A stretch of DNA of 64,000 nucleotides from a virus (IMGVR_UViG_3300033146_000658:5330-69329), one strand, 5' to 3'. Shown: positions 1,443 through 26,194, counted from the stretch's first letter. Numbers and translations: made by a program. The notes: generated by a model from the letters alone, not told the origin.

Positions 1443-1778
1443 ATGAATACTTTAATAGTATTTAATAGTAGATCTACGCCAGGACAAATATTAGCTACAT
1501 TTATTAGAAATGGGCATACCAATGATCCCGGAGATAGCATTGAGCCAAGAAAAGTAATTGAAAGAATCTCTAATATAAGAGAAAAATCGCTAAGAGATCA
1601 TAAGGGAATAGGCTTTATATATTCAAAATCTATAAAGTTATCGGGCGAAACGTATTATTCTAGCGGCTATGATATTGGGTTGATTATAAAAAATAAGAGC
1701 TATGACCGTGTTCTTGGAGAATGGGATTTCTTTGACTTAAGGACTCTGCCTGAGATGGGAATATTAAAAATCATTTAA
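1443..1778 (+). CDS. small hypothetical protein with conserved C-terminal tag (EMGILKII)
   Basis: 111 aa; ends with the motif shared by 10 other ORFs. Confidence 0.7.
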   Translation: MNTLIVFNSRSTPGQILATFIRNGHTNDPGDSIEPRKVIERISNIREKSLRDHKGIGFIYSKSIKLSGETYYSSGYDIGLIIKNKSYDRVLGEWDFFDLRTLPEMGILKII

Positions 1779-1790
1779 ATTATATAAGAT

Positions 1791-2315
1791 ATGAAAGTAG
1801 AAAAAAGTTTGAGAGTGTTTATTCATTCAAATGGATTAAGTCCAAATCAAGCATTCTTTCTAATTTCCTTATATAACAATGACGATAAGTATATTAATAA
1901 CATTACAAAAGAGGAAAAGAGAGAATTATATGAAAGGAACTTAATATTTAATACAGAAAAGCCAGCCCTTCGTAGCGAAGGGTTGAGCTTATTTTCTGAT
2001 GACAACATCAAGGAATTGTTTGATTTATTTTGGGATAGATATCCTAGCAAGACACCTAGCGGTAGAGTATTGAAGTCTGTCGCTAAGGGGACTAAACAAT
2101 ATGATGTTGCGTGGCAGAAATATAAAAGAATAATTAAACGTAAATCAGATCATGAGGCTGTTATGCATGGATTGAATGCAGAATTGCAAGACAAGGGACG
2201 TAGAGGTAGTCTAGAGTATATGCAGGGCGTAGAACGCTATTTAAATGCTCGCCAATGGGAAATGTACCAAGAGAGTGAGATAGTTCAGGAGGGTAGTAAT
2301 TATAGTTCTATTTAA
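1791..2315 (+). CDS. putative replication initiator / helicase loader
   Basis: FDLFWDRYPSK...YMQGVERYLNARQWE resembles the phage replisome-organiser C-terminal domain; overlaps the helicase start (TAATG). Confidence 0.6.
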   Translation: MKVEKSLRVFIHSNGLSPNQAFFLISLYNNDDKYINNITKEEKRELYERNLIFNTEKPALRSEGLSLFSDDNIKELFDLFWDRYPSKTPSGRVLKSVAKGTKQYDVAWQKYKRIIKRKSDHEAVMHGLNAELQDKGRRGSLEYMQGVERYLNARQWEMYQESEIVQEGSNYSSI

Positions 2316-3397
2316 TGAGTTATTTCCAATCATTTCAAGACGTTATGAATGAAGATAACGCCGGGATAGATTTTCCCGTAGACAGATTAAATAGTATTAT
2401 TCCAGGCATACAAAAACAGCGTATTTACGTTGCTGGAGCAGGATCTGGTGTTGGAAAGACTAAATTTACATTAGAGTTTTTTGTATTTAATACATTTGAC
2501 GATTGGTATTTTTCAGACAGAACTGATAGTATAAATATACATGTATTTTCATTAGAAGTTCCCAAGGAAGAAGTAATAGCGTCACTCGCGGCCAGATGGC
2601 TATACAAACAACACAAGATATTAGTTGATTATGGATATATACTTAATTACTGGAAGAAATATCCAATGACTGAGTATGTTAAGGATTTGCTCAAATCAGA
2701 CGAATTCAAATTATATTTAGAGAAGTTTGAAGAGACAGTTAAAATACTTGACTTTTCCCTCAATACAGTATCGTTTGCACAATATGTGGATGGTATAGCT
2801 AAAGAGCAAGGGGAAATATTAACTAAGCAAGTTGTTACAAAAGACAATGTTACATTAAATATGTTTGAATCATATACGCCTGTAAATAAAGATACTTATA
2901 ATATATTTGTATTGGACCATATTGGTTTAGTTAAAACAATAAGCGGTCAGGATAAGCGTAAAATGATTGAAGATATAGCTGATTATCAAATTAAAGCAAG
3001 AAACAGGTATAGATTTACATTTTGTAACACTCAGCAATTAAATAGAGGGTCTAATAGTGTAGAAAGACACAAGCTTGAAGATTTAATTGTTAAAGATAGT
3101 GATTTTGCTGGTGGCTCAGGATTATTTAATGCGGCCAATGTGGTGATAGGGTTAATGAGCCCTAATAGAGAACAGCAGTCATCATTTATGGGGTTTAGGG
3201 TAGCTAATAGCGACTTACAACCCGGACTAGGAAACAGACTTACTGTATTAAATGTAGTTAAGAACAGGCATGGTTCCGCTTTTGGAGTATTACCAATGTT
3301 ATTCCTTGGGGAAATAGGCTTGTATAGTGCATTACCTAGAGATCCTGAGGGATTTGACTACAATCAGATAAGTAATATAAAGAAATATTATGAATAA
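2315..3397 (+). CDS. dnaB: DnaB-like replicative DNA helicase
   Basis: Walker A AGSGVGKT, FSLE, Walker B FVLDHIG, QQLNR and KNRHG arginine-finger motifs of SF4 helicases. Confidence 0.85.
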   Translation: MSYFQSFQDVMNEDNAGIDFPVDRLNSIIPGIQKQRIYVAGAGSGVGKTKFTLEFFVFNTFDDWYFSDRTDSINIHVFSLEVPKEEVIASLAARWLYKQHKILVDYGYILNYWKKYPMTEYVKDLLKSDEFKLYLEKFEETVKILDFSLNTVSFAQYVDGIAKEQGEILTKQVVTKDNVTLNMFESYTPVNKDTYNIFVLDHIGLVKTISGQDKRKMIEDIADYQIKARNRYRFTFCNTQQLNRGSNSVERHKLEDLIVKDSDFAGGSGLFNAANVVIGLMSPNREQQSSFMGFRVANSDLQPGLGNRLTVLNVVKNRHGSAFGVLPMLFLGEIGLYSALPRDPEGFDYNQISNIKKYYE

Positions 3398-3674
3398 ATT
3401 CAGAGTTGGACAAAAAGTAAGGGTTAAGAAGTCTGTTAAAGCTGGTGATGTTATATACGAAAAATATGGACAGCAGATAAACGAACGAGTCTACTCTATA
3501 ATATCTGATAAGACTTTTGTTATATCAAAAGATACTATAGATCTACTTTTACCTCCTAATACGTATTACCTTGATTATGACAGTATTGAAATGAAAGGAT
3601 TAGAATATACGTGGGACGAAGATGTATTGGAATTAGCAAAACTTGACAACTTAGGCGTATTAAAGATTTTATAA
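3390..3674 (+). CDS. small KOW/SH3-like protein with C-terminal tag (NLGVLKIL)
   Basis: N-terminal FRVGQKVRV; shared C-terminal motif. Confidence 0.7.
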   Translation: MNKFRVGQKVRVKKSVKAGDVIYEKYGQQINERVYSIISDKTFVISKDTIDLLLPPNTYYLDYDSIEMKGLEYTWDEDVLELAKLDNLGVLKIL

Positions 3675-3675
3675 T

Positions 3676-3924
3676 ATGAAACCATTTAAAATAGGACAAA
3701 AGGTTAGGGTTCGTGATGATTTGGTAATTGGCGAACCATATATGCATTATAATGGAGCGTTTAATGGATTTGTTAGCTCAATGTCTCATTTATCAGGTAA
3801 AGTGGTCACTATAACATACGACAGTGCCTACGGGTATTCGGTAATAGAAAGCGGATATGAATTAACTCACGAAATGTTAACCAATGTAACAAATATCAAA
3901 TTAGGTATTTTAAAAATAATTTAA
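3676..3924 (+). CDS. small KOW/SH3-like protein with C-terminal tag (KLGILKII)
   Basis: N-terminal FKIGQKVRVRDDL; shared C-terminal motif; likely paralog of the preceding ORF. Confidence 0.7.
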   Translation: MKPFKIGQKVRVRDDLVIGEPYMHYNGAFNGFVSSMSHLSGKVVTITYDSAYGYSVIESGYELTHEMLTNVTNIKLGILKII

Positions 3925-3943
3925 CAATAGAATAACGACTGTC

Positions 3944-3955
3944 AATAACATATAA
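3944..3955 (+). promoter_or_regulatory. putative phage promoter motif variant AATAACATATAA
   Basis: One mismatch to AGTAACATATAA, which occurs three times upstream of - strand genes; intergenic, 31 nt before the ATG at 3987. Confidence 0.4.
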
Positions 3956-3986
3956 TTGAATTAAAAACAATTTAAATTATATAAAT

Positions 3987-4655
3987 ATGGCGAGACTTAT
4001 AATGATAGTCGCACAGAGCGGCTCGGGGAAATCAACCTCGTTAAGAAATTTAAAGCCAGAAGAAACATTTATTATTAAACCAAACGCTAAGCCACTACCT
4101 TTTAAAGGTGCTAAAAAGAGTTATTCTAAGGAGAATAAGAATCTATTCGTAACAACAAGCTTGGTAGAATTGAAGAAAACGATATTAAATGTTAATTCTA
4201 AAGCTACACATATTAAAAATTTAGTCATAGATGATTTTTTTCATTTCATGATGGCTAAATCGATGGCTGATATTAGTAAACCAGGATTCCAAAAGTTTGC
4301 AGATTTAGGTAAGGAGGTTTTTGAGGCTACAGCTGGATTAGAGACTGATTTAAGAGATGATCTTAATTTAATCATACTAACACATTCTGTAGAAGAAAGA
4401 GATGCTTCAGGGCTACCTCAGACTAAATTAAAACTTACTGGTAAATTTGTAGAAGAGAAGGTTGACTTACCAAGTTATTTCACTTATGTCTTAGAGGCTA
4501 AGGTGTTATTTAATCAAGGGAAGTCAGAGTATAAGTTCTTAACAAATAAGAGAAGTGAAGCCGATATGGCAAAAACTCCTTTTGGTATATTTGAAGAAGA
4601 GTTTATAGATAATGACCTTCAGTCTGTATTAGAAATCTTAGACGAAAACGAATAA
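3987..4655 (+). CDS. AAA ATPase, Sak4-like single-strand annealing protein (AAA_24-type)
   Basis: Walker A AQSGSGKSTS, Walker B LVIDD, ILTH and C-terminal AKTP motifs; near the SSB gene. Confidence 0.75.
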   Translation: MARLIMIVAQSGSGKSTSLRNLKPEETFIIKPNAKPLPFKGAKKSYSKENKNLFVTTSLVELKKTILNVNSKATHIKNLVIDDFFHFMMAKSMADISKPGFQKFADLGKEVFEATAGLETDLRDDLNLIILTHSVEERDASGLPQTKLKLTGKFVEEKVDLPSYFTYVLEAKVLFNQGKSEYKFLTNKRSEADMAKTPFGIFEEEFIDNDLQSVLEILDENE

Positions 4656-5134
4656 TGAGTTGGGGAAATAATATGAGTGAATTAAGATGGGCTAGTGGCT
4701 CATCATCACTCCCTAATGCTAAAGAGGAGATGGATAGACGGCGAGATGTTTTTAATGGAGTATTTAATACTACAGATAAGGGACGCGATGTAAAGAGAGA
4801 GCCAATTCTGACAGCTTCTTCTAACTGGATGGATTTAAATACAACTAATGGAGATTTATATAATACTAGAGGTTGTGATAGAATTGAGCAATTAGAGCCA
4901 GTTGATGATACTAGTGATACAATTTTAAATATCGATTTTGAAGAGCCTATTCGTGCCAATGTAGGTGTTGGAATACAATCAGCTGCTGACATGTTATCGT
5001 CATGGGATTCTATAAGGATTAAGTCTTTAAATGAGATGATTAAGGCTGAAGCTGCTTATTTATTTAAGGAATCTATGTTTAACATAAAGAGACGTCAAAT
5101 AAGATCTAAATTAGGCATTATGAAGCTTGTTTAG
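4655..5134 (+). CDS. hypothetical protein with C-terminal tag (KLGIMKLV)
   Basis: 159 aa; shared C-terminal motif. Confidence 0.6.
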   Translation: MSWGNNMSELRWASGSSSLPNAKEEMDRRRDVFNGVFNTTDKGRDVKREPILTASSNWMDLNTTNGDLYNTRGCDRIEQLEPVDDTSDTILNIDFEEPIRANVGVGIQSAADMLSSWDSIRIKSLNEMIKAEAAYLFKESMFNIKRRQIRSKLGIMKLV

Positions 5135-5177
5135 CGAAGTGTAGTAGTAAGCGTTGAGTCACGCGCTAAAGTGGCTT

Positions 5178-5208
5178 AAAACAATTTAATAAACAATTTA
5201 ATAAACAA
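5178..5208 (+). repeat. tandem 12-nt repeat AAACAATTTAAT x2.5 directly upstream of ssb
   Basis: aaacaatttaat-aaacaatttaat-aaacaat immediately before the ATG at 5210. Confidence 0.6.
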
Positions 5209-5209
5209 T

Positions 5210-5818
5210 ATGATTGATTTTAGTGGAGTAAAGGAAGAAGGTAAGAAATTATCGTGGGTAGGATATGGAATCAGTGAGAATGTAGTATTCTCGAGTATTA
5301 ATTTAGGCGAATCGTCTAATGGTAAGCCCAGAATAGAGATGAAGATAAAGTTCGATGGATCTGATGACTCTTCGTCAACTAATCTATATCTGTATTTATC
5401 GGAGAATGCGATTCCGTATACAATGAAGAATATTCTCTCGATTCAGAAGAGATTAAGTTCAGAAGCAGCATTACGAGCTAATTCATTTGCTGACAACGCT
5501 GCATTAGTAGCATTCTTGTCATCACAATGGATTGGAGATGGTAAGAAGTTCAGAATTAAGCTCAAAGGAGAAGAGTATGTGGGCACTGATAAAGAAGGCA
5601 ATCCTGCTGTGAAGATAAGAGTATCTGTTCCTTATGGAGATTTTATCGAGTCTATGAATCCGTTCTCAGAAGCACCTGCAATTCTAGCAGAGAGTGATAC
5701 TAAATTAAAGTTCTCTAAGGGGGATAAGTATGATTTTCAGCAATTACCAGATGCAGACATTCAGACATTAGGAGAGAGTCCTAATACACAATCAAAAGCT
5801 GATGATTTACCGTTCTAG
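5210..5818 (+). CDS. ssb: single-stranded DNA-binding protein
   Basis: Beta-rich body with acidic C-terminal tail ending DDLPF, the SSB-Ct motif; located between Sak4-like ATPase and primase. Confidence 0.7.
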   Translation: MIDFSGVKEEGKKLSWVGYGISENVVFSSINLGESSNGKPRIEMKIKFDGSDDSSSTNLYLYLSENAIPYTMKNILSIQKRLSSEAALRANSFADNAALVAFLSSQWIGDGKKFRIKLKGEEYVGTDKEGNPAVKIRVSVPYGDFIESMNPFSEAPAILAESDTKLKFSKGDKYDFQQLPDADIQTLGESPNTQSKADDLPF

Positions 5819-5837
5819 TGACTAATTAGTTATCAGT

Positions 5838-6086
5838 ATGATAAATGTATCTAAGTTAAAAAGTGGAGATATTATTAAAGCTAAAGCGTGCATATCTAAA
5901 AGAGGCGAGCATTGGAGCCCTTATGGATATATGGATTATTTGCTTAATGGAGTTCATTCGCTTAAGTATCGTAGCGGTCAGTCATTATATACATTAGATA
6001 ACCTCGGAAAAATAAAATGGATAGTCAGACACACTGAATTCTCTTTGGTTAAACAATATAATATCGGTATTTTCAAAATATTATGA
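5838..6086 (+). CDS. small KOW-like protein with C-terminal tag (NIGIFKIL)
   Basis: LKSGDIIKAK at N-terminus; shared C-terminal motif; ATGA overlap with primase. Confidence 0.7.
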   Translation: MINVSKLKSGDIIKAKACISKRGEHWSPYGYMDYLLNGVHSLKYRSGQSLYTLDNLGKIKWIVRHTEFSLVKQYNIGIFKIL

Positions 6087-7069
6087 TTGACTTTAATAAT
6101 ATACTTAATAAGGATAATCTTTTAAACAAAGTATCAAATTATCAAATACTAAAGTTCTACCTGCCTCAATTAGAGGTGGGTGGAGTTGTTAGTTCACCGT
6201 TGAGAAGCGATAGTAATCCATCATTTTCTATGTTTAATAGTAGGTATGGTGTATTAGTTAGAGACTTCTCTACAAATAAGATTTATAATGGAATAACATT
6301 CGTTATGGAGCTTATGGCGGTTAATTTCTTTATGGCGTTATCTATAATAAATAGAGATCTTGGGTTAGGTATGATTGATGATAATGCTAGCGCGTTAGTC
6401 GGTCATAAATTAACCAAGAGTGAGGTTGTTATAGATGACCCTAAAGAACATTCATCAAAGGTAATTACATACAGTTTCAGAGATTGGAATCAAGACGACG
6501 CTGATTATTGGCGACCATTTGGGATAACATCCAAGCAGTTGATTGAATCAAAAACTTTCCCAATTAAATATTTTTGGATAAACAATCAATTTACGATAAT
6601 GGCTGATAAACTGGCTTATGTCTATATGTTCTATGAGCATAAAGGTATATTTAGAGTTAAAATTTATCAACCATATAATAAGACATGGAAATGGACTACG
6701 AATTTAGACTCAACAGTTGTTGATGGAATTAAGGAATTAGAGCCATCAGATTTGCTGATTATAACTAAATCACGTAAAGATAGATTAGTCCTTAATAACT
6801 TTGGGTATCAGGCAATAGCCGTAAATAATGAAGGGAGTTTCATTCCCGATAGTCTATTTGAGAAATTAACAGCACGTTATCCAAGGATATTGTTATTCTT
6901 TGATAATGATAAAGCTGGCAAGGAAATGAGCACAAAGTTCTCTGAATTGTATGATATTGAAAATATAGCAATACCAGACGAATATGAAGAGAAGGATGTG
7001 GCGGACTTTGTAAAGTCTTACGGCAATTTTGTAACAAAAGATGTATTAACTAAATTAATTAACAAATGA
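6083..7069 (+). CDS. DNA primase (crAss-type, TOPRIM)
   Basis: Degenerate Zn-binding-like N-domain SPLRSDSNPSF; IITKSRKD and FFDNDKAG TOPRIM motifs; KDVAD. Confidence 0.85.
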   Translation: MIDFNNILNKDNLLNKVSNYQILKFYLPQLEVGGVVSSPLRSDSNPSFSMFNSRYGVLVRDFSTNKIYNGITFVMELMAVNFFMALSIINRDLGLGMIDDNASALVGHKLTKSEVVIDDPKEHSSKVITYSFRDWNQDDADYWRPFGITSKQLIESKTFPIKYFWINNQFTIMADKLAYVYMFYEHKGIFRVKIYQPYNKTWKWTTNLDSTVVDGIKELEPSDLLIITKSRKDRLVLNNFGYQAIAVNNEGSFIPDSLFEKLTARYPRILLFFDNDKAGKEMSTKFSELYDIENIAIPDEYEEKDVADFVKSYGNFVTKDVLTKLINK

Positions 7070-7302
7070 TAATAATAATTTTATGGTCGCTATTAGCGAT
7101 AATTGTATATGCTGTAATAGGCATTGCATACTACGTTGTTCTTGAACAGAAAGAGGATGACCCTGGATACGAATTCCAGAAAGAAGCGAAAATAGATGCT
7201 TATATATGGTTGCTAATCTTAATATGGTGGCCTCATAAGTATATGTATAATTTAATATTAACTAAGTTTGGAGAGGCTACCTTAAAACATAAAAAATTAT
7301 GA
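7066..7302 (+). CDS. small membrane protein
   Basis: Two hydrophobic segments in 78 aa. Confidence 0.6.
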   Translation: MIIIILWSLLAIIVYAVIGIAYYVVLEQKEDDPGYEFQKEAKIDAYIWLLILIWWPHKYMYNLILTKFGEATLKHKKL

Positions 7303-7625
7303 TACATGTATTATACATATTAATATATGCTTATTTCCATTTTTTAATGGCTGGGTTATCCATAGCATTAATAAAGGGGTCTACAGCATCAATTTACTAT
7401 AATTATGGGGAATCTGAATATGATGATGTGGACGGGCTATTACTTATTATAATATTAGTGTTTGCCCCAATAGTTATTTTAATATTCTTAATATACGTTA
7501 TTGCAGTGGTTTTATATATACATATAATTAAAAATGCTGCAAAGCCATTTAAATGGATAGGTGTGAAGATTTATGATTTTTTTAATTACTTAATAGAAGA
7601 ATATTACTATAGAGATGGAGAATAA
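7299..7625 (+). CDS. small membrane protein
   Basis: Two long hydrophobic segments in 108 aa. Confidence 0.6.
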   Translation: MIHVLYILIYAYFHFLMAGLSIALIKGSTASIYYNYGESEYDDVDGLLLIIILVFAPIVILIFLIYVIAVVLYIHIIKNAAKPFKWIGVKIYDFFNYLIEEYYYRDGE

Positions 7626-8061
7626 TAACAAGAGTGTGACACGCTCATTAATAAGTGTTTATGGTTCACTTCGGAAAGGCCACGGAAATCATGGATTATT
7701 CCTAAGATTTCCTAAGGATGAATGGGAATTCGAGGGTGTAGAGACAATTAAAGGATTCAACTTATTCCCATTAGGAGGGTATCCTGGAATAGAGAGAGGC
7801 GATGGTCAATTAGTTATTGAGAAATATCTAGTTTCGGACGCCGTGTTAGCTAGAGTGAGAGGGTTGGAAGGTTATGACCCAAACGAACCTCATTCTGCGC
7901 AAGATTTTTATGACGAAATTCAAATTGAGACAACTTCTGGAACTTCTGGAATCTACTTGTATGTAGATGGCGCTAGGGGAGCTAGTATTATCGAGGATGG
8001 AGATTGGAATAAATATTGTGGAGTAGAGGAATTAACAGAAAAAGACAATAGTTATGAGTAA
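7615..8061 (+). CDS. gamma-glutamylcyclotransferase (AIG2-like)
   Basis: VYGSLRKG signature, YPG and LEGY catalytic-Glu motif. Confidence 0.85.
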   Translation: MENNNKSVTRSLISVYGSLRKGHGNHGLFLRFPKDEWEFEGVETIKGFNLFPLGGYPGIERGDGQLVIEKYLVSDAVLARVRGLEGYDPNEPHSAQDFYDEIQIETTSGTSGIYLYVDGARGASIIEDGDWNKYCGVEELTEKDNSYE

Positions 8062-8551
8062 GAGTAAGATAGGTATCTTGTCACTCGTGTTTAAAAGCGC
8101 GGGGATTAATGTATTAAATAATAATAAACCTATTGAATATGGTGACCTTGTTAAGATAATTAGTAAGAGATTTCAGAATTATAACGAAGGTTCTGTATTT
8201 AGAGTCGATGGACTAACGCATGATAGTAATGGTAATATTACAAAAGTGGGTATACGCCCATCCGAAAAAGGCAATACCCCACCAAGATACGGGGTAAATA
8301 AACTACGATACGTATCAATAAAAGGTGTGATTAAAGTTGCTGGGAATAGAGGTAATTTCGACTTAGATGTTCCTGAAGAGGTGCGGTCAGCTCACAGAAG
8401 GAGATTGCTAAACCATGAAGGTAGGGTGACGACATCTGGTGAATTTAAATGGTATAGTGGATATGGGAATAACTTTTCATACGAGCATGAAGTTACCAGC
8501 GAATTACTTGCGTCGTATAAAAAGTTTGTAAGATTGTATAAAAAGAGATAA
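8054..8551 (+). CDS. hypothetical protein (KOW-like segment)
   Basis: 165 aa inside the ligase cluster; IEYGDLVKII. Confidence 0.55.
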   Translation: MSKSKIGILSLVFKSAGINVLNNNKPIEYGDLVKIISKRFQNYNEGSVFRVDGLTHDSNGNITKVGIRPSEKGNTPPRYGVNKLRYVSIKGVIKVAGNRGNFDLDVPEEVRSAHRRRLLNHEGRVTTSGEFKWYSGYGNNFSYEHEVTSELLASYKKFVRLYKKR

Positions 8552-8553
8552 CA

Positions 8554-9471
8554 ATGAAGAAAATCAAAGTATTATCATGGGACAGAACTAGCATGAGTTC
8601 AAGAACCATATCAAGATTTCAGCCAGGGAAGAATAGAGTTCGTCCTGAAAGCACAACATTCAAGCCTAAGGTTGGTCAATTATTGATTAATTGGGGTTTT
8701 CGCGGTTCATTTGGATTTTCTATACCAGAGGGCGTGGATATCCTAAACAGACCAGAGAATGTCGCTAACGCATCTGATAAGCGAAGATGCTTACGCATAT
8801 TAACAGACAACGAAGTTCCTACATTGGATTTTGCATTAAATAGGACTGATGCTGCTGCTTTATTTGAAAATACAGATAAAGTTTATTGCCGAACAAGAAT
8901 CTCTTCACATAGTGGAAGAGGTATTATTATCGCAAATAATATAGAGGAGTTAGTAGATGCTCAGTTATATACAGCTAATTTTCCTAATACTACAGAATTT
9001 AGAGTTCATATATTTAAGGGACAAATCACTGATATTACACAAAAGAAGTCAATGTCTAGTGAGCGTAGAGAAAGATTAGGTATAACAAGAACTGAGCGAA
9101 GAGAAGAAGTTAGAAACTTAGGCTCTGGATGGTCATTTGTTAGAACTGAAATGGATCTTTACGACAGCGAAGGAGATGTTCGTAATGAAATACACGATGT
9201 GTCATTAGATGCGATGAGTGCGCTAGGGCTTGATTTTGGAGCCGTAGACTTGTTAATGAATGATGAGGGTGAATGTAGAGTTGTAGAGGCTAATACCGCA
9301 TGTGGAATGAAGATAAACACTACTACGCATTATCGTTACATTAAGAACTTCATGGATTACGCTAATAATGACTTTTCGTTAAGTTTATATAATAGTAGAT
9401 ACGAAGGGAATTTCAATAACGAACACGAGGGAAATATCGATCAGTTTATAGCTGATTGTTCAGAGGAGTAA
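8554..9471 (+). CDS. ATP-grasp ligase (RimK/phiEco32-like)
   Basis: INWG, SDKR, HSGRGI, EFRVHIF, LGLDFGAVD and VVEANTACG motifs. Confidence 0.85.
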   Translation: MKKIKVLSWDRTSMSSRTISRFQPGKNRVRPESTTFKPKVGQLLINWGFRGSFGFSIPEGVDILNRPENVANASDKRRCLRILTDNEVPTLDFALNRTDAAALFENTDKVYCRTRISSHSGRGIIIANNIEELVDAQLYTANFPNTTEFRVHIFKGQITDITQKKSMSSERRERLGITRTERREEVRNLGSGWSFVRTEMDLYDSEGDVRNEIHDVSLDAMSALGLDFGAVDLLMNDEGECRVVEANTACGMKINTTTHYRYIKNFMDYANNDFSLSLYNSRYEGNFNNEHEGNIDQFIADCSEE

Positions 9472-9489
9472 TAACATCAAATATAACAA

Positions 9490-10455
9490 ATGGCATTAAA
9501 GAGAGTAAAACAAGATAGGGATTCTAGAGTTGGTAATTACGGATTAAGAAACTCATCTTATAGAGTGGTTGGAGTTGCTGATGATGGATCTAGAGGTAGT
9601 AGACAAGATTGTTGTGAATCATTTGCTACAATAAGTGGTGAGTATAATGTAGAAACATACGTGTTTTTGCATCAAATGGCTTATGAGCACATGAGAGAGC
9701 CTTCTTACGTTAAGAAAGTAGAGGAGTATATCAATTCGTTAGGATTTGATGTAGAATTACTTAACACAGAGCCTAAGATCGTAAACATTGAAAGACCTAA
9801 TATAAATGAAGATATACCCAAAGAGAATAGCTATAATAAATTAGCTTATGCATTTAGAACCAATTCCGTTAATTACAAGAAAGGGGCTATGACATTAGCT
9901 TCACATTCTTTAATTAGAGCATTATGGTCTGATAGATTTGATGATTTATGGGATGATGTATTTATGTTACGGGATCTTGATGAATTGTCTCATTTGGATA
10001 ATTACGAGATTTGGCAAATGGCTGAATACAGAAAGAAATATTGGGGATATCATGGATTACTACCAACAGAAGATGATTCTGATAGAAAGTTACACATGAT
10101 AATATCAATGGGTGGATTAAAGAATAGAATGAATTCAAGTATTCACAATACCGTTCACAAGATGTGTGCCCAGAAGTTTGATGATGATGGAAAATCTGAC
10201 GTCACAAAAGCTTTGCGTAGCGAGGTTAGAAAATTATTCAAAGCTAAGAAGTATGTGGAACTATATGATAAGATGTCTATAAAAGGACAATCATCATTCG
10301 GTTTATGTAATGATGATTCGTACAGAGAAGATTGGATTGTGATTGGTAAAACTTATGACATTAAAACATTAAAAAACAAGAGATTTATACTTGTTAAATG
10401 TGAAGATGGTGTTAATAGAAGGTTGAAGAAAACTAGATTTAATTTATCTGAGTAA
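9490..10455 (+). CDS. hypothetical protein within ligase cluster
   Basis: 321 aa; no recognised motif; possible small beta-domain at C-terminus. Confidence 0.6.
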   Translation: MALKRVKQDRDSRVGNYGLRNSSYRVVGVADDGSRGSRQDCCESFATISGEYNVETYVFLHQMAYEHMREPSYVKKVEEYINSLGFDVELLNTEPKIVNIERPNINEDIPKENSYNKLAYAFRTNSVNYKKGAMTLASHSLIRALWSDRFDDLWDDVFMLRDLDELSHLDNYEIWQMAEYRKKYWGYHGLLPTEDDSDRKLHMIISMGGLKNRMNSSIHNTVHKMCAQKFDDDGKSDVTKALRSEVRKLFKAKKYVELYDKMSIKGQSSFGLCNDDSYREDWIVIGKTYDIKTLKNKRFILVKCEDGVNRRLKKTRFNLSE

Positions 10456-10709
10456 TGAAATATAGCAAATATGATATATTCCAATTTAATAGTCACTTTT
10501 TTAGACCGTTAGATGATATGAGGTTACATAAAGGGGGCATAAGAATAAAAACTTTTAAAACTATAAGAGTGAATAAGGGAGAACCTACTAGCGACGCATT
10601 AATTAATTTAGAAGCTGATGCGCCATTTGATAATTATGTAAAGGATAATATATTTAAACTTGTAAAAAAGCATAATCTTGACAATATTGGAATATTAAGA
10701 ATTATTTAA
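10455..10709 (+). CDS. small hypothetical protein with C-terminal tag (NIGILRII)
   Basis: 84 aa; shared C-terminal motif. Confidence 0.7.
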   Translation: MKYSKYDIFQFNSHFFRPLDDMRLHKGGIRIKTFKTIRVNKGEPTSDALINLEADAPFDNYVKDNIFKLVKKHNLDNIGILRII

Positions 10710-10724
10710 TTAATTAATTAACAA

Positions 10725-11543
10725 ATGAATAACAAAGAAGTTAAATTTTTACTTGGGAGTGACCCAGAACTTTTTCTAAAGCGTCGAGTTAAAGGCGTTT
10801 TAGACTTCTTTAGCCCAGAAGGACTATTGACTGGAACAAAAACAGAGCCAGAATGGATTGACGAGAACAAACAGAGAGGTATATTATTAGATAATGTGTC
10901 ACTTGAGTTCTTGACTGCTCCATCTGGTAACAAAAGAGATTTCGTTGATGAGCATAAATTCATGATGAATTACGTTAAGACTGCGATGTCTGCATATAAA
11001 TTAGTTGTATCGGAGGATTCGGTCGCTGAATTCAATGATAAATATTTATCTACAGCAAATGCTACAGAATTCGGGTGTTCTGAATCATTTAATGCAAGAA
11101 CCGGAAAGGTTAATGTAATGCCTGATGCGTCAATATCTAAGAAAAGAAGTTGCGGTGGTCATTTACACGTGAGCGTTGATGATTATGACATGACATTTGA
11201 GGATTGCATAGATATAACTAGAATCATGGATTTGTATCTAGGGGTTCCATCTGTAATAATGAGTAAGGATACGGAAAGACGAAATATGTTCTACGGGAAA
11301 GCTGGAGAATTCAGATGGCAACGAGAACGATATTTAGAATACCGATCATTAGATAACTTTTGGTTATTCGATGAGAAGTATATGGAATGGGCATGGGCTC
11401 AAACGGAAAGGGCATTAGTTGCGTGGCGTAATGGGTTTAGAGTTGATAACAAATTATACGATATAATTGAATTAACAATAAACAAATACGACAAGGCGTC
11501 AGCTAATGTCATAATTGATAAATTTAACTTAAACATAACTTAA
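10725..11543 (+). CDS. phiEco32-like COOH-NH2 ligase type 2
   Basis: LGSDPELFL, DNVSLEF, FGC, RSCGGHLHV, YGKAGEFR and EYRSLDNFW motifs. Confidence 0.85.
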   Translation: MNNKEVKFLLGSDPELFLKRRVKGVLDFFSPEGLLTGTKTEPEWIDENKQRGILLDNVSLEFLTAPSGNKRDFVDEHKFMMNYVKTAMSAYKLVVSEDSVAEFNDKYLSTANATEFGCSESFNARTGKVNVMPDASISKKRSCGGHLHVSVDDYDMTFEDCIDITRIMDLYLGVPSVIMSKDTERRNMFYGKAGEFRWQRERYLEYRSLDNFWLFDEKYMEWAWAQTERALVAWRNGFRVDNKLYDIIELTINKYDKASANVIIDKFNLNIT

Positions 11544-11544
11544 T

Positions 11545-15026: not shown

Positions 15027-15275
15027 ATGGAGTTTAAATTTAAAGTTGGGCAAAAATTCAAAAGATGTGAACCATTTTTTAAGCCACATCAATGCATTGA
15101 TTTTAAAATTATTAAGGTTAGCGAATATGGAATAACAATAGATAAGTCGTATATGCTTGATAATTTTTTTGACGGATATGAAATTGATAAAAATAATGCA
15201 TCGTACCATATTCGGACTAATCATTGGGAATTAATAAAATCACCACGAAATATAGGAGTATTAAAAATTCTATAA
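15027..15275 (+). CDS. small protein with C-terminal tag (NIGVLKIL)
   Basis: Likely start is ATG at 15027 (MEFKFKVGQKF), just after the previous stop, rather than 14877; shared C-terminal motif. Confidence 0.7.
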   Translation: MEFKFKVGQKFKRCEPFFKPHQCIDFKIIKVSEYGITIDKSYMLDNFFDGYEIDKNNASYHIRTNHWELIKSPRNIGVLKIL

Positions 15276-16697: not shown

Positions 16698-17125
16698 TGA
16701 TAATTAACAAAAGCTACCACATGATATATCCAATGTTTGAAAAAAACTTAGACATGAGGTATAGTGCATTTAACTCTTATATGAATCATAGAAAATATAA
16801 GAATACAATAACCATAGATATATTATTTAAAGATGATCACATTGACACTGGCTATGAATCATTTGGATATGTCGAATTTGATAAATATTTAAGAGGCCAT
16901 AATTTATATGTAACACATAGAGATAATGGAGATTATATATCTTACACATTTAACATTCCTCAATCACTGAATCAAGTAGTGTCTGATTTATGGCATGGCG
17001 ATTGGGAATTTATCACTAAACAGAATTATAATGAGATGACAGCAATTGGACAAATGGTATTTCAAGAATTAAAAAACAAGGAGATTCCTCTAAAAAGATA
17101 CAAGACATATGAGCAAGCGTTTTAA
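16697..17125 (+). CDS. hypothetical protein
   Basis: 142-aa ORF coupled by TAATG overlap. Confidence 0.6.
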   Translation: MIINKSYHMIYPMFEKNLDMRYSAFNSYMNHRKYKNTITIDILFKDDHIDTGYESFGYVEFDKYLRGHNLYVTHRDNGDYISYTFNIPQSLNQVVSDLWHGDWEFITKQNYNEMTAIGQMVFQELKNKEIPLKRYKTYEQAF

Positions 17126-17333
17126 ATTAATAAAAGGTCAGGTATATTATAGGGAAATGTCTAATATACGATGTAATATAATTAATCTATTTGGCGAAAC
17201 TGTTATTTATAATCACGATAACGGAGAAGAACATCATGGCAAAATTAGTTGGCTGTCTGACGCATTGTCTTCGTCTGGTTATATTTTAGAGAAGGTAATG
17301 CATAACAATATGGGTATATTAAAAATATTATGA
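17109..17333 (+). CDS. small protein with C-terminal tag (NMGILKIL)
   Basis: 74 aa; shared C-terminal motif. Confidence 0.7.
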   Translation: MSKRFKLIKGQVYYREMSNIRCNIINLFGETVIYNHDNGEEHHGKISWLSDALSSSGYILEKVMHNNMGILKIL

Positions 17334-17967: not shown

Positions 17968-20370
17968 ATGACAGATAATATAATGTATTTTAACGGAGAT
18001 GAATTAGCCGCTAAAGTCTGGTATGATAAATACAGACATGATGGAGAGTCCACACCGCTAGATATGCATAAAAGAATGGCAAAAGAATTTGCCAGAATAG
18101 AATCAAATTATAAAAATCCTTTATCTGAAGATGAAATATTATCTTATTTAATAGATTTTAAACATATAATTCCACAAGGGAGTATAATGAGTGGTCTTGG
18201 TAGTAATAAGATAGTATCATTATCTAATTGCACTGTAATAGATTCGCCATTTGATTCTTATGGAGGAATATTCTCTACAGATGAGGAATTAGCTCAATTG
18301 ATGAAGCGGAGATGCGGTGTAGGCGTAGATATATCAACATTGAGATATAATGGGTCTAATGTAAAGAATGCTGCAGGAACATCAAGTGGTGCTGTATCAT
18401 TTTTGAAACGATTTAGTAATACAACTAATGAAGTTGCGCAAGATGGCCGAAGAGGAGCGTTGATGGCTTCAATAGATGTATCTCATCCTGATATTAAAGA
18501 ATTTATATCAGTAAAATCAGATTTATCACAAGTTACTGGTGCTAATTTATCAGTTAGGATATCTGATGATTTTATGAAAGCTGTCGAAAATGTTGATATA
18601 TGGCCATTGGAATTTGAAGGTGAAGTGATAGAATGCGTAGATGCTAAAGAATTATGGGATCTAATAGTTAAGCAGGCTAGAGATAATGCCGAACCAGGAA
18701 TTTTATTCTGGGATAGACATCATAATTATTCAACTAGCTCAGTATATCCCGATTACAAGAATGTTAGCACAAATCCGTGTGGAGAACAAGCGTTACAAGC
18801 ATATGATTCATGTAGGTTAATAGCGTCTAATATGTTAGGGTCAGTAATAAACCCATATACAGAAGATGCTTACTTTGATTATGATAATTACAAAAGAGTA
18901 TGCAGAGTATTAGTTAGATTAAATGATGATTTAGTAGATTTAGAAATTGAATATATTGATAAAATAATTAATCATATAGAATTATCTAAAGAACCAGATG
19001 TTATTAAGTCTAGAGAGATTAATATGTGGAGAAAGTTTCAGGATTCAGGGCGTAAAGGACGTAGAATAGGAGCTGGATTTACAGGATTAGGAGATACTTT
19101 CGCGGCATTAGGATTAGTTTATGGGTCATTAAAATCTAAACGATTCTTGAATATTGTGATGAAAGAAAAAGCTGAATCTGAATTTGAGGAATCTATACAA
19201 TTAGCTAAAGAAAGAGGTGCTTTTGATGGGTTTAGTCCTAAGATAGAAGAAACCTCTGATTTTGTTAAAATGATGAAAGAAGAAATGTATTCTACTTACA
19301 TTAAAATGATGAAATATGGTCGTAGAAACATCAATATATCAACAGTAGCCCCAACTGGGAGTTTAAGTATATTAGCTGGTGTAACAAGTGGTTTAGAGCC
19401 GTTATTTATGCCTTATTATACACGTAATAAGAAAGTTACTGAAGGTGAGGTTGCTGATTTTACAGATGAAAATGGTATTGAATGGAAAGGCCATAATGTT
19501 ATTCATAAACAATTTGAATATTGGATGAAAAAACATTACGATTATGACTGGGTAGATAATATGGATAATTTATCAGAAGCTAATTTACAAATAGCATTTT
19601 CGGTATCCCCATGGCATAATTCAACAGCTAACGATATTCGATGGAAGGATAGGGTGGAAATACAATCTATTATTCAGAAATATACTACTAATTCAATATC
19701 TTCTACAATTAATTTACCAGAAAATACTACTGAACAAGAAGTTAGTGATATTTATATGGAGTCATGGAAAATGGGATTAAAAGGAGTGACTGTTTATAGA
19801 GATGGGTCAAGACAAGGTGTATTAGTATCATCTAATGATAAGAAAGACAAAGATGGCCGTCCGGTATCAATAAATAGACAAAGCTCTCCAAAACGATCAA
19901 AAGACCTAATATGTGACATTCATAAATTAACAGCTAAAGGAGTAAAGTATACTGTTTTGGTTGGTAAATTAGACGATGAGCCATATGAAGTATTCGCATT
20001 TGAGCAACAATATGATTCTATTAAAGGAGATGTTGGTATTCTACGAAAAGCGAAAAGGGGTAAATATGATTTAATTATTAATGAAGATATCTATGAAGAT
20101 ATTAATTTGAATGTTGGAGAGAATGAATTATCTTTAACCAGAATGATCTCTACATCATTAAGGCATGGTGCAGATATAGCATTTATAGTTGAACAGTTAA
20201 ATAAATCTAACGGATTAGTAGTTGGATTTACTAAAGCTATAGCTAGAGTATTAAATAAATATTCCTCAAGGAAGACTAAATCAATATGTCCTGAATGTGA
20301 TAGTGAGAACTATATAGAAGAAGGTGGTTGTGCCAGTTGTAAGGATTGTGGATATTCAAAATGTGGGTAA
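17968..20370 (+). CDS. nrdJ: class II (adenosylcobalamin-dependent) ribonucleotide reductase
   Basis: SLSNC, RRGALM, EPG, TNPCGEQ, APTG, SISSTIN and KGVTVYRDGSR motifs; C-terminal CxxC...CxxC zinc ribbon; no nrdB in the window. Confidence 0.9.
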   Translation: MTDNIMYFNGDELAAKVWYDKYRHDGESTPLDMHKRMAKEFARIESNYKNPLSEDEILSYLIDFKHIIPQGSIMSGLGSNKIVSLSNCTVIDSPFDSYGGIFSTDEELAQLMKRRCGVGVDISTLRYNGSNVKNAAGTSSGAVSFLKRFSNTTNEVAQDGRRGALMASIDVSHPDIKEFISVKSDLSQVTGANLSVRISDDFMKAVENVDIWPLEFEGEVIECVDAKELWDLIVKQARDNAEPGILFWDRHHNYSTSSVYPDYKNVSTNPCGEQALQAYDSCRLIASNMLGSVINPYTEDAYFDYDNYKRVCRVLVRLNDDLVDLEIEYIDKIINHIELSKEPDVIKSREINMWRKFQDSGRKGRRIGAGFTGLGDTFAALGLVYGSLKSKRFLNIVMKEKAESEFEESIQLAKERGAFDGFSPKIEETSDFVKMMKEEMYSTYIKMMKYGRRNINISTVAPTGSLSILAGVTSGLEPLFMPYYTRNKKVTEGEVADFTDENGIEWKGHNVIHKQFEYWMKKHYDYDWVDNMDNLSEANLQIAFSVSPWHNSTANDIRWKDRVEIQSIIQKYTTNSISSTINLPENTTEQEVSDIYMESWKMGLKGVTVYRDGSRQGVLVSSNDKKDKDGRPVSINRQSSPKRSKDLICDIHKLTAKGVKYTVLVGKLDDEPYEVFAFEQQYDSIKGDVGILRKAKRGKYDLIINEDIYEDINLNVGENELSLTRMISTSLRHGADIAFIVEQLNKSNGLVVGFTKAIARVLNKYSSRKTKSICPECDSENYIEEGGCASCKDCGYSKCG

Positions 20371-20371
20371 T

Positions 20372-20962
20372 ATGAAAAGTAAAAAATGTTCAAAATGTAA
20401 AAATATATTACAAATAGATAATTTTGGTTTAAAAAATAAAAAATACAGAAGCGAATGTAAAGAATGTAGAAAGAAAGAAAGGCAAACGGAAAATGGATTA
20501 ATAACGTCTATATATTCATCACAAAAATCTAATTCAAAACGCAGAGGACATTTGATGCCTGAATACTCTAAGATAGAATTAATAAAATGGTTATATAATA
20601 ATAATTTTAAAACATTATATAATAATTGGGTAAAATCAAATTATAATTCAAATCTCAAACCGAGTGTAGATAGATTAAATGATGAAAGATGCTATTCATT
20701 TAGCAATATTAGATTAGTTACTTGGCATGAGAATAATAAGAAAGGATATAGTAATGTAATTAATGGTGTTGATAAAAGAAAATTAAGATCAGTAAATAAA
20801 TATTCTGTATGGGGTTATTTTCTAAGAACTTATTATTCAATATCGCAAGCGGAGAGAGAAACTAATATTAGCAGTAGCCGCATCAGCTCAGTTTGTAAAA
20901 ATGAAAAAGGTACAGCTGGAGGTTTTATGTGGAGATATAATATCGGTATTAATTTAGAGTAA
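20372..20962 (+). CDS. free-standing His-Me finger (HNH-like) homing endonuclease with NUMOD1 domain
   Basis: CSKC...CKEC zinc finger, PSVDRLNDERCYSFSNIRLVTWHEN nuclease core, C-terminal YYSISQAER...AGGFMWRY; likely start ATG at 20372. Confidence 0.75.
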   Translation: MKSKKCSKCKNILQIDNFGLKNKKYRSECKECRKKERQTENGLITSIYSSQKSNSKRRGHLMPEYSKIELIKWLYNNNFKTLYNNWVKSNYNSNLKPSVDRLNDERCYSFSNIRLVTWHENNKKGYSNVINGVDKRKLRSVNKYSVWGYFLRTYYSISQAERETNISSSRISSVCKNEKGTAGGFMWRYNIGINLE

Positions 20963-21145: not shown

Positions 21146-21430
21146 ATGATAAGAACATGTAGGGCGGGTGACATAGGAGGCATAGTGTTATGTGGGGTTA
21201 ATTCTCGAGCGGACGTAGTTATGTTTAAATCAAAGCCATTAATAAAGGATCAGTTATCGTGGCATATCACTGTAGGCCATTTAAATATGGAGTATTATTC
21301 GGATCAATTTAAGGAATATTACAATAAGGGGTATAGATATGCTTATAATATACATAACAACAAATGTATCGGTAGCGGATTAGTAATAAATAATCGAGTA
21401 TTACCAGTAGGAGTATTTAAAATATTATAA
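21146..21430 (+). CDS. small protein with C-terminal tag (PVGVFKIL)
   Basis: 94 aa; shared C-terminal motif. Confidence 0.7.
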   Translation: MIRTCRAGDIGGIVLCGVNSRADVVMFKSKPLIKDQLSWHITVGHLNMEYYSDQFKEYYNKGYRYAYNIHNNKCIGSGLVINNRVLPVGVFKIL

Positions 21431-23558: not shown

Positions 23559-23575
23559 TCATATCACAGGTTAGA

Positions 23576-24064
23576 ATGATATCCGATTTACATTTCGGGC
23601 ATAAATGGATGGCTCATCATCGTGGATTTCAGGACGAATTCTACCAAGATGAACATATTGTTGAACAATGGAATAAAGTTGTTCATAAGAAAGATTTAGT
23701 CTATATACTAGGCGATGTCACAATGGAGTCTAAAGAGCATTATTATCGTTTTAACACAATGAATGGAAGAAAAGTAGTTGTTTTAGGCAACCATCATAGA
23801 TGGCAAGATACTGCCGAATTACTTAAATACGTGGACGGTGTAGCTGGAGTTATAAGCTACAAGGGATTTATGTTAACGCATATTCCTGTTCATTCAAAAG
23901 AGTTGTATGATAATGATTTTAAGACCAGATGGAGAGGAAACATTCATGGACATATGCACGAACATACACTTGATGACAAGATGTATTTTAATGTATCAGC
24001 CGAAAGACTAGATTATACGCCTATATTATTTACTGACATTTTAAAAAAGATGGGAAAGGAATGA
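23576..24064 (+). CDS. calcineurin-like phosphoesterase
   Basis: SDLHFGH, LGD, GNH, THIP and HGHMH motifs; frame is open a few codons upstream (ATA-SQVR), so the true start may be 23561. Confidence 0.85.
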   Translation: MISDLHFGHKWMAHHRGFQDEFYQDEHIVEQWNKVVHKKDLVYILGDVTMESKEHYYRFNTMNGRKVVVLGNHHRWQDTAELLKYVDGVAGVISYKGFMLTHIPVHSKELYDNDFKTRWRGNIHGHMHEHTLDDKMYFNVSAERLDYTPILFTDILKKMGKE

Positions 24065-25878
24065 TATTTATGAGTTTAGAAGCCAGCCCTGCATTGTGTG
24101 GGGTTGGTTTTCGCAATACAGAAGGAGTGTCTATAGTTTATCTAATCGGTTCAAAAGTTAATGAGGTTGATGAGATAACTAAAATGGTCAAGAAGCATGG
24201 TGTTTTGTGCGGTTATAACATTAAGAAATATGACAGTATTATATTGTCATATATAATGAATAATCACGGAGCATCAGCTCATGATATATTTGAATTTTCT
24301 CAGAACATTAAAAAAGTATTGAATGATCACTCTCACAATAGTAGTGAAGATTATAGAACGTATAAAAACAAGACCTACAGAATAGGTTATGTTGATTTAC
24401 AAAAAGTTAATGACTTAAAGAGTGAGAATTTACTAAAGACAGCAATATCTATAAACTTTGAAAATGTAACGCATTTAAATACTGACAAGTTAAATATGTC
24501 AGAGTCATTTAAAGGCCATTTAAAGGAGTTTATTGAAAGAAAGGTAGAAATCATCCATTCGTTATATAATAAGTCGCTAGAGCGTCTTAAAATACGTAAG
24601 TATCTCAGTAAGGAGTATAATGAAGATTTAATGTGTAGCACTAATTCAACAGTTGCTTCAATGATTCTTCAAAAGAAATACACGGCCAAAACTGGTATAA
24701 GTAAATGGGATTTATACAAATCAAGACAAGAATATAGTTTTATTGAGTTAAAAGATATTCTACCGTATCACCTAAAATTTAAGAATAAGTCTATTACAGA
24801 TTTGTTTGAAAGATTGAAGAGTGTTACGTTATCTGAAAATAATTCAAAGATCGACGAACAAGTTATAACTAAATCAATAGTGCATAATTTCAAAAGGGGC
24901 GGATTGCATAGTGTAAGTAAGCCTGGAATTATAAAGCCGCCTGATGGTGGAAAGTTGATTTATTTAGATTTTAATACATTTTATGGGAAACTAATTATCC
25001 AGCAAGATATTAGGCCAAATCATGTGTCCGAGAGGTTTTTGGAAGTTATAAAAGACTTGATTGAATTAAGAACTAAACTTAAAAATAATGACAATCCTGC
25101 ACATAATATGATAAAGCGCACAATTGCGTCTATATCTGGTAACTTATCAGCTAAAAAATCAATGTTTAGAGATTTTAAAGCGGCCGTAAAGTTATATATG
25201 TTTGGGCAATTTACATTATTAAAAGTTATAGATAATGTTGAGCTTGTAGATGGTGTAGAATGTATTTATTCAAATACAGATGGCATTATACTCAAAGCTG
25301 AAGAAAGTAGCTTAAAAGGGCTTAAAATAGCGTTAAATCAAACATCTGAAGAATTAGGCATCCCATGGGAGACTAAACTACTTGATAGATTAATATATCT
25401 TGATGTAAATAATTACGCTATTACAGGAATTGATAATGAATTTGACGGGGTTGGATTGTTTAATAACGAAGTTAAGATAGGCGATGCATTAAGAGCCCCT
25501 ATTGTGACAAAGGCAATTAATAATTACTTCATTGAAGATATTCCTGTAGAAAAGACAGTTATTGATGGTAGAGATGACATAAACAACTACACTTACTCCA
25601 GTAGTATTGAGAGTGATAGTGTGGCTAGTTATGAAACTCAACACGAGAGCATTGCTTTAAGTAGAGAGAACAGATACTATGTATCTCAATCTTTCGGGAA
25701 TATAGTTCATAGGAAGATGAATAGTAAGCATTGGAAACCATTAATAACTGGTTATCATTGTAGGCCTATCAATAAAGTCGAAGACAAAAAATATAGAAAG
25801 ATTAATTTTAAATATTACATTATGAAAGCGAATAAAGTAATAGATAAGATTGACGATAAACAACTAACACTTTTTTAA
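24061..25878 (+). CDS. family B DNA polymerase (crAss-type, divergent)
   Basis: GYNIKKYD (ExoII), GGLHS, YLDFNTFY (motif A), YSNTDGI (motif C), DVNNY; C-terminal QLTLF clamp-binding motif. Confidence 0.8.
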   Translation: MIFMSLEASPALCGVGFRNTEGVSIVYLIGSKVNEVDEITKMVKKHGVLCGYNIKKYDSIILSYIMNNHGASAHDIFEFSQNIKKVLNDHSHNSSEDYRTYKNKTYRIGYVDLQKVNDLKSENLLKTAISINFENVTHLNTDKLNMSESFKGHLKEFIERKVEIIHSLYNKSLERLKIRKYLSKEYNEDLMCSTNSTVASMILQKKYTAKTGISKWDLYKSRQEYSFIELKDILPYHLKFKNKSITDLFERLKSVTLSENNSKIDEQVITKSIVHNFKRGGLHSVSKPGIIKPPDGGKLIYLDFNTFYGKLIIQQDIRPNHVSERFLEVIKDLIELRTKLKNNDNPAHNMIKRTIASISGNLSAKKSMFRDFKAAVKLYMFGQFTLLKVIDNVELVDGVECIYSNTDGIILKAEESSLKGLKIALNQTSEELGIPWETKLLDRLIYLDVNNYAITGIDNEFDGVGLFNNEVKIGDALRAPIVTKAINNYFIEDIPVEKTVIDGRDDINNYTYSSSIESDSVASYETQHESIALSRENRYYVSQSFGNIVHRKMNSKHWKPLITGYHCRPINKVEDKKYRKINFKYYIMKANKVIDKIDDKQLTLF

Positions 25879-25879
25879 T

Positions 25880-26194
25880 ATGGAAAATAAAATATATCCA
25901 GTAAATGTATTACATAGGTTCTTGGATAAATATAAGGCAAGATATGTTTTTATTAAGAATATAGCTACTGCTAATTCGTCCTCCGGTGATGAAGCTAATG
26001 ATATACTTAAATTATACAATGAGGGGCATGTTAATGAAAGAACTATTACGGGATCATTTGGATGGATAGAGAGGGAGTATGAAGGGGATGTAACGTTATG
26101 GATGAGAATAGATCAAGAATGGCGTGATGCTATTGAAAATGGTAGTATTAGGGAATATATACCAAATAATATTGGTATATTGAAGTTATTATAA
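25880..26194 (+). CDS. small protein with C-terminal tag (NIGILKLL)
   Basis: 104 aa; last gene of the + strand block; shared C-terminal motif. Confidence 0.7.
   Translation: MENKIYPVNVLHRFLDKYKARYVFIKNIATANSSSGDEANDILKLYNEGHVNERTITGSFGWIEREYEGDVTLWMRIDQEWRDAIENGSIREYIPNNIGILKLL

Follow-up and report, generated by a model that had tools for sequence, protein, structure and literature searches.

The closest described systems in which a single short peptide is common to otherwise different proteins are the cargo proteins of the encapsulins and the internal proteins of the T-even phages. According to two accounts, the cargo proteins of Family 1 encapsulins have nothing but a C-terminal targeting peptide in common, e.g. 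GSLxIGSLK, GGDLGIRK, LTVGSLRR or TVGSLIQ, and this peptide places two or three hydrophobic side chains into luminal P-domain pockets of a shell with HK97 fold, accompanied by a Lys-Asp salt bridge (PMC10960027, PMC8346489). For the T-even phages, diverse internal proteins are described which share only a capsid targeting sequence, and this sequence directs them into the prohead, from which they are injected (PMC3012670). In this study, we analysed a terminal peptide tag in a window of 64,000 nucleotides (IMGVR_UViG_3300033146_000658:5330-69329), which is part of a linear IMG/VR virus record of 69,329 bases, in the following referred to as the contig. The genes are arranged as in Cellulophaga phage phi14:2, which is crAss-like. 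An earlier note, made from the sequence of the window alone, had described eleven small proteins that end in the same peptide and had proposed it as an address label. All coordinates refer to the window unless they are marked as contig positions.

All eleven open reading frames (ORFs) named in the earlier note exist at their positions and with the described endings. Among the 319 six-frame ORFs of at least 30 amino acids in the window, the pattern G[IV][LFM][KR][IL][ILV] matched eleven times, each time at the very end of the ORF, where it forms the last six residues, with no internal match. The looser pattern G-[ILVMF]2-[KR]-[ILVMF]2 gained one internal match, which is GLVRFI in 57694-58398 on the - strand. 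Beyond the window, the contig holds two further carriers (958-1284 and 4339-4662 in contig positions, both + strand), which comprise N-I-G-[IV]-L-K-L-I followed by FKN or FNN. In total, the contig contains 13 carriers among about 75 ORFs, all located on the + strand and all encoding 74-159 amino acids. The tag occurs on no - strand ORF (0/20) and on no protein with a Pfam enzyme match; the earlier note had stated its absence from recognisable enzymes and from 19 - strand structural genes.

Chance was assessed with a set of 74 non-overlapping ORFs from the whole contig, comprising 22,671 amino acids. Since a long alternative start of the following ORF overlaps 14795-15025, this carrier was left out of the set. 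Based on composition, 3.8e-4 terminal matches would be expected, and 2000 shuffles per protein yielded a mean of 0.001 matches and a maximum of one. The five-residue core [ILVM]-G-[IVS]-[LFM]-[KR] occurred 13 times, corresponding to twelve tags and one position inside ribonucleotide reductase. Compared to internal positions and shuffled sequences, the two controls named in the earlier note, the terminal motif is therefore far in excess, and a chance origin was rejected on the basis of the missing strict internal matches and the shuffles.

The conservation of the tag resides in the peptide and not in the DNA, as the earlier note had claimed. Across the 13 tag regions, Gly is encoded by each of its four codons and every hydrophobic position by three to six codons, and all three stop codons occur (TAA eight times, TAG once and TGA twice in the eleven window carriers). 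The information per nucleotide column is three-periodic, with an invariant T or A at the second codon positions and only 0.01 bit at the third position of the Gly codon. This three-periodic conservation indicates selection on the peptide; together with the free third codon positions, it led to the rejection of a DNA repeat as an explanation. Counted from the end of the motif, position -8 is occupied by N, K, E or P and position -7 by I, L, M or V, followed by G at -6 in 13 of 13 tags, solely I or V at -5, solely L, F or M at -4, K (twelve tags) or R (one tag) at -3, I or L at -2 and I, L or V at -1.

Two parts of the earlier description have to be corrected, the first being the position of the stop codon. 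That the stop codon follows immediately holds true for the eleven ORFs of the window and fails for the two further contig carriers, in which three residues are appended. The tag is thus not strictly C-terminal and does not strictly require a free C-terminus at a fixed distance, which weakens readers of the PDZ or ssrA type that depend on a free carboxylate at a fixed distance. An effect of the nascent peptide on termination was also judged unlikely, since the carriers are proteins of 74-159 amino acids with folded bodies, two of which comprise three extra codons behind the tag.

The protein bodies had been called highly divergent. This applies to most of them, which are unrelated once the tag is removed: BLASTP on the tag-less bodies revealed as sole link the one between 3390-3674 and 3676-3924 (E 5e-5). 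It does not apply to these two adjacent ORFs, which encode clear SH3-like paralogues (E 2.5e-5), and several carriers share an N-terminal strand. With a deeper alignment, AlphaFold2 predicted residues 1-70 of the protein from 3676-3924 as a confident barrel with a mean predicted local distance difference test (pLDDT) value of 86.7, while residues 71-82, which comprise the linker and the tag, were modelled as coil, and their block means dropped to 58 and 44. A model from the six paralogues alone reached a pLDDT of 48 and was unusable. A Foldseek search with the model yielded weak matches, all of them SH3-like and including YorP (2heq) and the Mind bomb repeats (4tse), and Pfam SH3_15 reached a score of 21.8, which lies below the cut-off of 24.

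The outside homologues of this domain fit the picture of an appended tail. A profile of six paralogues against 1.84 billion representatives retrieved 47 proteins, including the query's own paralogues, with a family pattern of 'KVGDKVRV...WTDEMLEPV' that often occurs in tandem repeats. In ten sequences that were read and 15 outside homologues that were aligned, the domain ends with EMLEPV, followed by the next repeat or by an unrelated tail. Among the outside homologues, the tag was present only on P0051, an 88-residue homologue of 5838-6086 on an ENA contig of 868 bases, which ends with NIGIFQIL and thus shows Q in place of K. As modelled for one body, the tag is an appendage behind an autonomous domain and not its last structural strand. 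The possibility that the carriers form a single fold with the motif as last strand, by which the earlier note would have been refuted, therefore mostly does not apply, as the bodies are mostly unrelated and the tag lies outside the modelled barrel.

Altogether, the tail is probably a portable docking label for one common receptor. As a protein-level short linear motif of the form [NK]-hydrophobic-G-[IV]-[LFM]-[KR]-[IL]-[ILV], it would be appended via a short linker to small accessory proteins, most of them unrelated in other respects, and would address all carriers to this receptor. Modularity and peptide-level selection agree with the portable address label of the earlier note, while we infer the one common partner as well as its identity. 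The likeliest receptor would be the HK97-fold head of the phage itself, at its inner face, or the assembly core of this head, so that the tagged proteins would be loaded into the procapsid and delivered along with the DNA. This assignment of the receptor is based on analogy and is tentative; it may well not hold. The still more specific idea that a tailed phage uses an encapsulin-type peptide to load at least a dozen unrelated small proteins into its HK97-fold head and injects them with the DNA, again drawn from analogy, must be regarded as unlikely.

Loading into the virion is favoured because the core hydrophobic-G-x-hydrophobic-[KR], which is present in 13 of 13 tags, resembles that of the encapsulin targeting peptides. 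Within the last twelve residues, this core was found in 12 of the 74 ORFs here, compared to 3 of 2240 ORFs from 80 distant crAss-like loci and none of the 125 ORFs of phi14:2. In the encapsulin peptides as described in the accounts cited above, the core reads IGSLK, VGSLR or LGIRK, and in the tag IGILK, VGIFK or LGVLK. Both are short, C-terminal and located behind a linker on otherwise unrelated proteins, and in both a few residues can follow the core. The encapsulin reader, as described in these accounts, is the luminal side of a shell with HK97 fold, and tailed phages use this fold as well. With the T-even internal proteins, the carriers share the character of diverse small, mostly basic accessory proteins with one common short peptide; for 9 of the 13 carrier bodies an isoelectric point of at least 8.9 was calculated. 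One study assigns about 5 MDa to the cargo zone of crassvirus heads (PMC10172136).

The likeness has limits on both sides. The 13 small carriers are dispersed in the replication block, whereas encapsulin cargo consists of one or a few enzymes encoded in an operon with the shell gene. The capsid targeting signal of T4 is located at the N-terminus, where the prohead protease cleaves it off. Unlike this signal, the tag is C-terminal and shows no sequence likeness to it, and in the T-even phages only few genes per genome carry the targeting sequence. A prohead protease gene was not seen on the contig, which is incomplete (68%).

A number of further observations weigh against a head receptor or against loading of the encapsulin type. 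The encapsulin likeness consists of a five-residue pattern only, and since about six known motif classes were compared, it is little surprise that one of them fits in part. Compared to the encapsulin consensus, the tag shows I or V in place of Ser and no upstream GSL repeat, and its two final hydrophobic residues have no counterpart in the encapsulin peptides. The search for an encapsulin shell gene (PF04454, Linocin_M18) gave no match at E <=1 on the whole contig, which represents about 68% of the genome. The replication or early-middle block harbours all tagged genes, and the virion block none. The major capsid protein, portal and terminase of phi14:2 yielded no match on the contig when used as tblastn queries, and no candidate reader was named by PHROGs and Pfam among the other + and - strand proteins. 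In the available part of the crAss001 study, virion mass spectrometry is reported for large cargo proteins only (PMC10172136). The annotation of phi14:2 likewise contains proteomics notes on - strand genes only, although phi14:2 itself has no tags. Finally, the tag is known from only one genome and one fragment of 868 bases.

Docking on a hub outside the virion structure is the first of three improbable alternatives. The tail would then bind to the host sliding clamp, a host chaperone, the host RNA polymerase or a replication protein of the phage, by beta-augmentation or in a groove. The phage does possess C-terminal hub peptides. PolB (24061-25878, + strand) ends with DDKQLTLF, which is a canonical bacterial beta-clamp-binding motif and suggests, as judged from the sequence, that the polymerase of the phage makes use of the host clamp. 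QLxLF was found at the end of 3 of the 22 PolB sequences checked, including the one of the window; in these three the ending is QL[TSK]LF, and many longer ones comprise YN[ST]LFD near the end. The ORF 5210-5818 (+ strand, 202 amino acids), which is located between the Sak4-like ATPase and the primase and had no Pfam or PHROG match, ends with ADDLPF, similar to the acidic tail of the bacterial single-stranded DNA-binding protein (SSB). Furthermore, the tagged genes are interleaved with replication genes, the N-I-G-I-L stretch of the tag loosely parallels the QLGLF of Pol II (PMC3716654), and clamp motif, SSB tail and tag are all one short terminal peptide on unrelated proteins, which in the known cases is read by a hub.

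The details of the motif point in another direction. The clamp-binding motif is given as QL[SD]LF or QLxLxL with a highly conserved Gln; this Gln is absent from 13 of 13 tags, and the invariant positions of the tag (G and K/R) differ from those kept in QL[SD]LF (PMC3716654). Since PolB, for which the clamp is needed, carries the canonical QLTLF unlike the tag, docking of the clamp type is weakened. Thirteen competitors at one replisome site would be odd, and the tag carriers are small proteins, not enzymes as in the case of the hub-docking replication peptides.

A targeting of the carriers to the membrane appears just as improbable. The tail would form a short amphipathic helix on the inner cell membrane, as the tails of MinD and FtsA do, and would need no protein receptor. 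The summed Wimley-White interfacial energies of the tags are mostly slightly negative (-1.2 to +1.3 kcal/mol), which is similar to the E. coli MinD tail according to a sum by hand. The arrangement G-hydrophobic-L-K-x-L also resembles this tail. R can replace K, and the extended variant G-I-L-K-L-I-F-K-N would place K at i and i+4 and thereby keep an amphipathic helix. Such tails, however, tolerate wide variation, whereas the tag is kept position by position although the bodies have diverged. Neither the beta-branched I or V behind the Gly nor the invariant Gly is needed for amphipathicity, and eight residues lie at the lower limit for stable binding. Compared to the tails of MinD and FtsA, the tag is much shorter, and it would be stricter among unrelated carriers than theirs are among orthologues.

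The same low probability is assigned to a C-terminal degron, which would hand the small early proteins over to an AAA+ protease of the host (ClpXP, ClpAP, Lon or FtsH) and make them short-lived. Known degron types comprise non-polar C-terminal tails as well as the [KR]-hydrophobic-hydrophobic endings of ClpX substrates. Like the degrons of the ssrA and MuA type, which act via ClpX, and the non-polar ones, which act via FtsH or Tsp, it combines an exposed hydrophobic C-terminus with a basic residue nearby. The model leaves the tail exposed and without structure, it is located at the C-terminus or at most three residues away from it in 13 of 13 carriers, and the carriers are small accessory proteins of the early or replication block. 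The ssrA-type degron of ClpX, in contrast, is a free C-terminal ...L-A-A-COOH, an ending that is missing here, since the tags end with [IL]-[ILV] or with FKN or FNN. Moreover, the preferences at single positions (I or V at -5, L, F or M at -4 and the invariant Gly) point to a shaped pocket and not to general hydrophobicity, and the extensions by three residues shift the carboxylate.

Hardly probable is the explanation that the tail is an heirloom, i.e. that the carriers descend from one SH3-like gene and that the tail completes or oligomerises the fold and has no function as an address. It is the paralogous pair that argues for common descent, along with the frequent pairing of carriers (3390/3676 and 14795/15027) and an N-terminal strand K-x-G-[QD]-x-[VIF], with which 7 of the 13 carriers, possibly an eighth, begin. 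In a leave-one-out hhalign test with the tags removed, seven candidates were compared to an SH3-like profile, which resulted in 98.5% for 3676-3924, 94% for 3390-3674 and weak values of 43% for contig 958-1284 and 24% for 15027-15275, with three more candidates at 7% or below. The other six carriers, scored against the profile, did not exceed 1.3%, and five carriers have no N-terminal strand motif. An assignment to the SH3_15-like, phrog_7488 or YorP-like domain thus applies to 3676-3924 and 3390-3674 and only weakly or not at all to the other eleven. The N-terminal strand common to seven to eight carriers belongs to the SH3-like fold, and about half of the carriers may have a common origin, while at least five have other architectures. 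In addition, the SH3-like homologues outside this phage are complete without the tail, and the tail lies outside the barrel in the model. A complex prediction with four copies of the 3676-3924 protein (score 0.00, mark 0.42) speaks neither for nor against self-association.

Very improbable, finally, is the option of the earlier note that the tail is a substrate mark for the phage ligases, i.e. for a phiEco32-type amidoligase/ATP-grasp module that would modify the tail Lys or the C-terminus: the complete module is present (GGACT, R2K ATP-grasp, COOH-NH2 ligase, GATase and Amidoligase_2), with one carrier inside it and two directly behind it, but phi14:2, with the same module order, and MW202615.1 both carry the module without a shared tail (0/2), which weakens this option, and furthermore the carrier inside the module has R instead of K, P0051 has Q, the extensions of three residues displace the C-terminus, and 10 of the 13 carriers are not adjacent to the module. 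The module itself (7615-14795, + strand) shows the gene order of phi14:2, into which 8054-8551, 9490-10455 and the tagged 10455-10709 are inserted in this lineage only; for none of the three did Pfam or PHROGs give a family match.

The eleven tagged ORFs of the window, all on the + strand, are distributed as follows. At 1443-1778, a protein of 111 amino acids with the ending EMGILKII is encoded, the body of which has no family match. The SH3-like pair comprises 3390-3674 (94 amino acids, NLGVLKIL) and 3676-3924 (82 amino acids, KLGILKII); the latter protein, compared to 5.8 billion proteins, matched only itself. The longest carrier, 4655-5134 (159 amino acids, KLGIMKLV, stop TAG), has a body unrelated to the others. 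It is followed by 5838-6086 (82 amino acids, NIGIFKIL, stop TGA), which overlaps with the start of the primase gene, and by 10455-10709 (84 amino acids), which ends with NIGILRII, the sole tag with R at -3, and is located within the amidoligase module at a place where phi14:2 has no gene. Behind the module, 14795-15025 (76 amino acids, KVGIFKIL) and 15027-15275 (82 amino acids from the ATG at 15027, NIGVLKIL), the latter with the weak SH3-like signal, are directly adjacent. The shortest carrier is 17109-17333 (74 amino acids, NMGILKIL, stop TGA), followed by 21146-21430 (94 amino acids, PVGVFKIL). The last gene of the + strand block is 25880-26194 (104 amino acids, NIGILKLL), behind which a hairpin and a T-run are located. 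Searches with Pfam and PHROGs for the ten window carriers other than 25880-26194 gave near-threshold matches for 3676-3924 alone, and 25880-26194 yielded no lead in the ESM Atlas (best feature score 0.81, template modelling score (TM) <=0.38). None of the 12 tagged ORFs of the 74-ORF set has a homologue in phi14:2, compared to 12 of the 42 untagged + strand ORFs.

Beyond this contig, the tag was absent from the 2240 ORFs of 80 PolB-related, distant crAss-like IMG/VR loci (1.2 Mb) as well as from the 125 ORFs of phi14:2 and the 70 ORFs of MW202615.1. In two scans of IMG/VR with degenerate DNA patterns, tag-like ORF ends never occurred more than once per contig. The first pattern found nine stretches without any ORF end of the tag type, and the second found 53 stretches, of which five comprise a single ORF ending with GILKIL and none comprises several. 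In the excerpts obtained by a full-text literature search, no description of such a shared tag was found. Three unrelated viral contigs of IMG/VR (L125, L137 and L139) encode one family of 211-residue proteins ending with SGILKIL, with one copy per locus, which is probably a coincidence. Another locus, L087 (IMG/VR, 115,882 bases, distant crAss-like), contains four ORFs at about 2072-7100 that end with [DE]-W-F-[EN]-x-[FN]-K-K-K, and at 3990-4820 three tandem ORFs of about 90 amino acids that end with N-N-V-K-x-L-I-S-K-I. These are different shared tails within the same viral order.

CheckV estimated the completeness of the contig at 68%. The order of genes on the + strand is helicase, Sak4-like ATPase, primase, phiEco32-type amidoligase module, exonuclease, ribonucleotide reductase and PolB, and the - strand encodes the giant virion RNA polymerase and the cargo genes. 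Compared to phi14:2, the proteins show only 23-50% identity, and the closest relative of PolB among 5.8 billion proteins is 27% identical, which indicates a lineage without close sequenced kin. In agreement with these values, megablast of 25 kb of the window against 50,697 phage records gave no match, and with the helicase as query no relative was found in IMG/VR. The contig breaks off within a - strand gene (window 63718-64000). Further tagged genes and the reader may be located in the missing part of the genome. In the sequencing data, one DNA run with a small word share and no RNA were found; the contigs obtained were short, of low depth and mostly identical, and gave no usable cover of the tags.

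Three further observations concern neighbouring genes. The Pfam domain 'Crassvirus cargo protein 1' is divided between adjacent - strand ORFs (window 50935-53399), with profile positions 2-64 matched by the C-terminal end of 52194-53399, while the N-terminus of 50935-52152 accounts for positions 75-127. The gene may be split or frameshifted here, or the assembly may be wrong. On the same strand, a protein of 557 amino acids had no match in PDB sequences or phage records. The ORF 20324-20962 (+ strand, 212 amino acids) shows a weak NUMOD1 match and shares 47 bases with the 3' end of the ribonucleotide reductase gene; it may represent an insertion similar to homing endonucleases.

Provided that the tail is read by one receptor, about one in six phage genes would belong to one functional class that can be recognised from the sequence, and the tail would provide a minimal handle of six to eight residues for a pull-down of this receptor. 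If the receptor is the capsid, encapsulin cargo loading would also be at work in a virus, which would bear on the relation between encapsulins and HK97-type viruses, and a natural tag for putting proteins into crAss-like virions would be at hand. Should loading of the encapsulin type prove true, the tail would form a natural bridge between encapsulin cargo loading and the internal proteins of phages, and would mark a sequence-recognisable set of injected host-takeover or anti-defence effectors.

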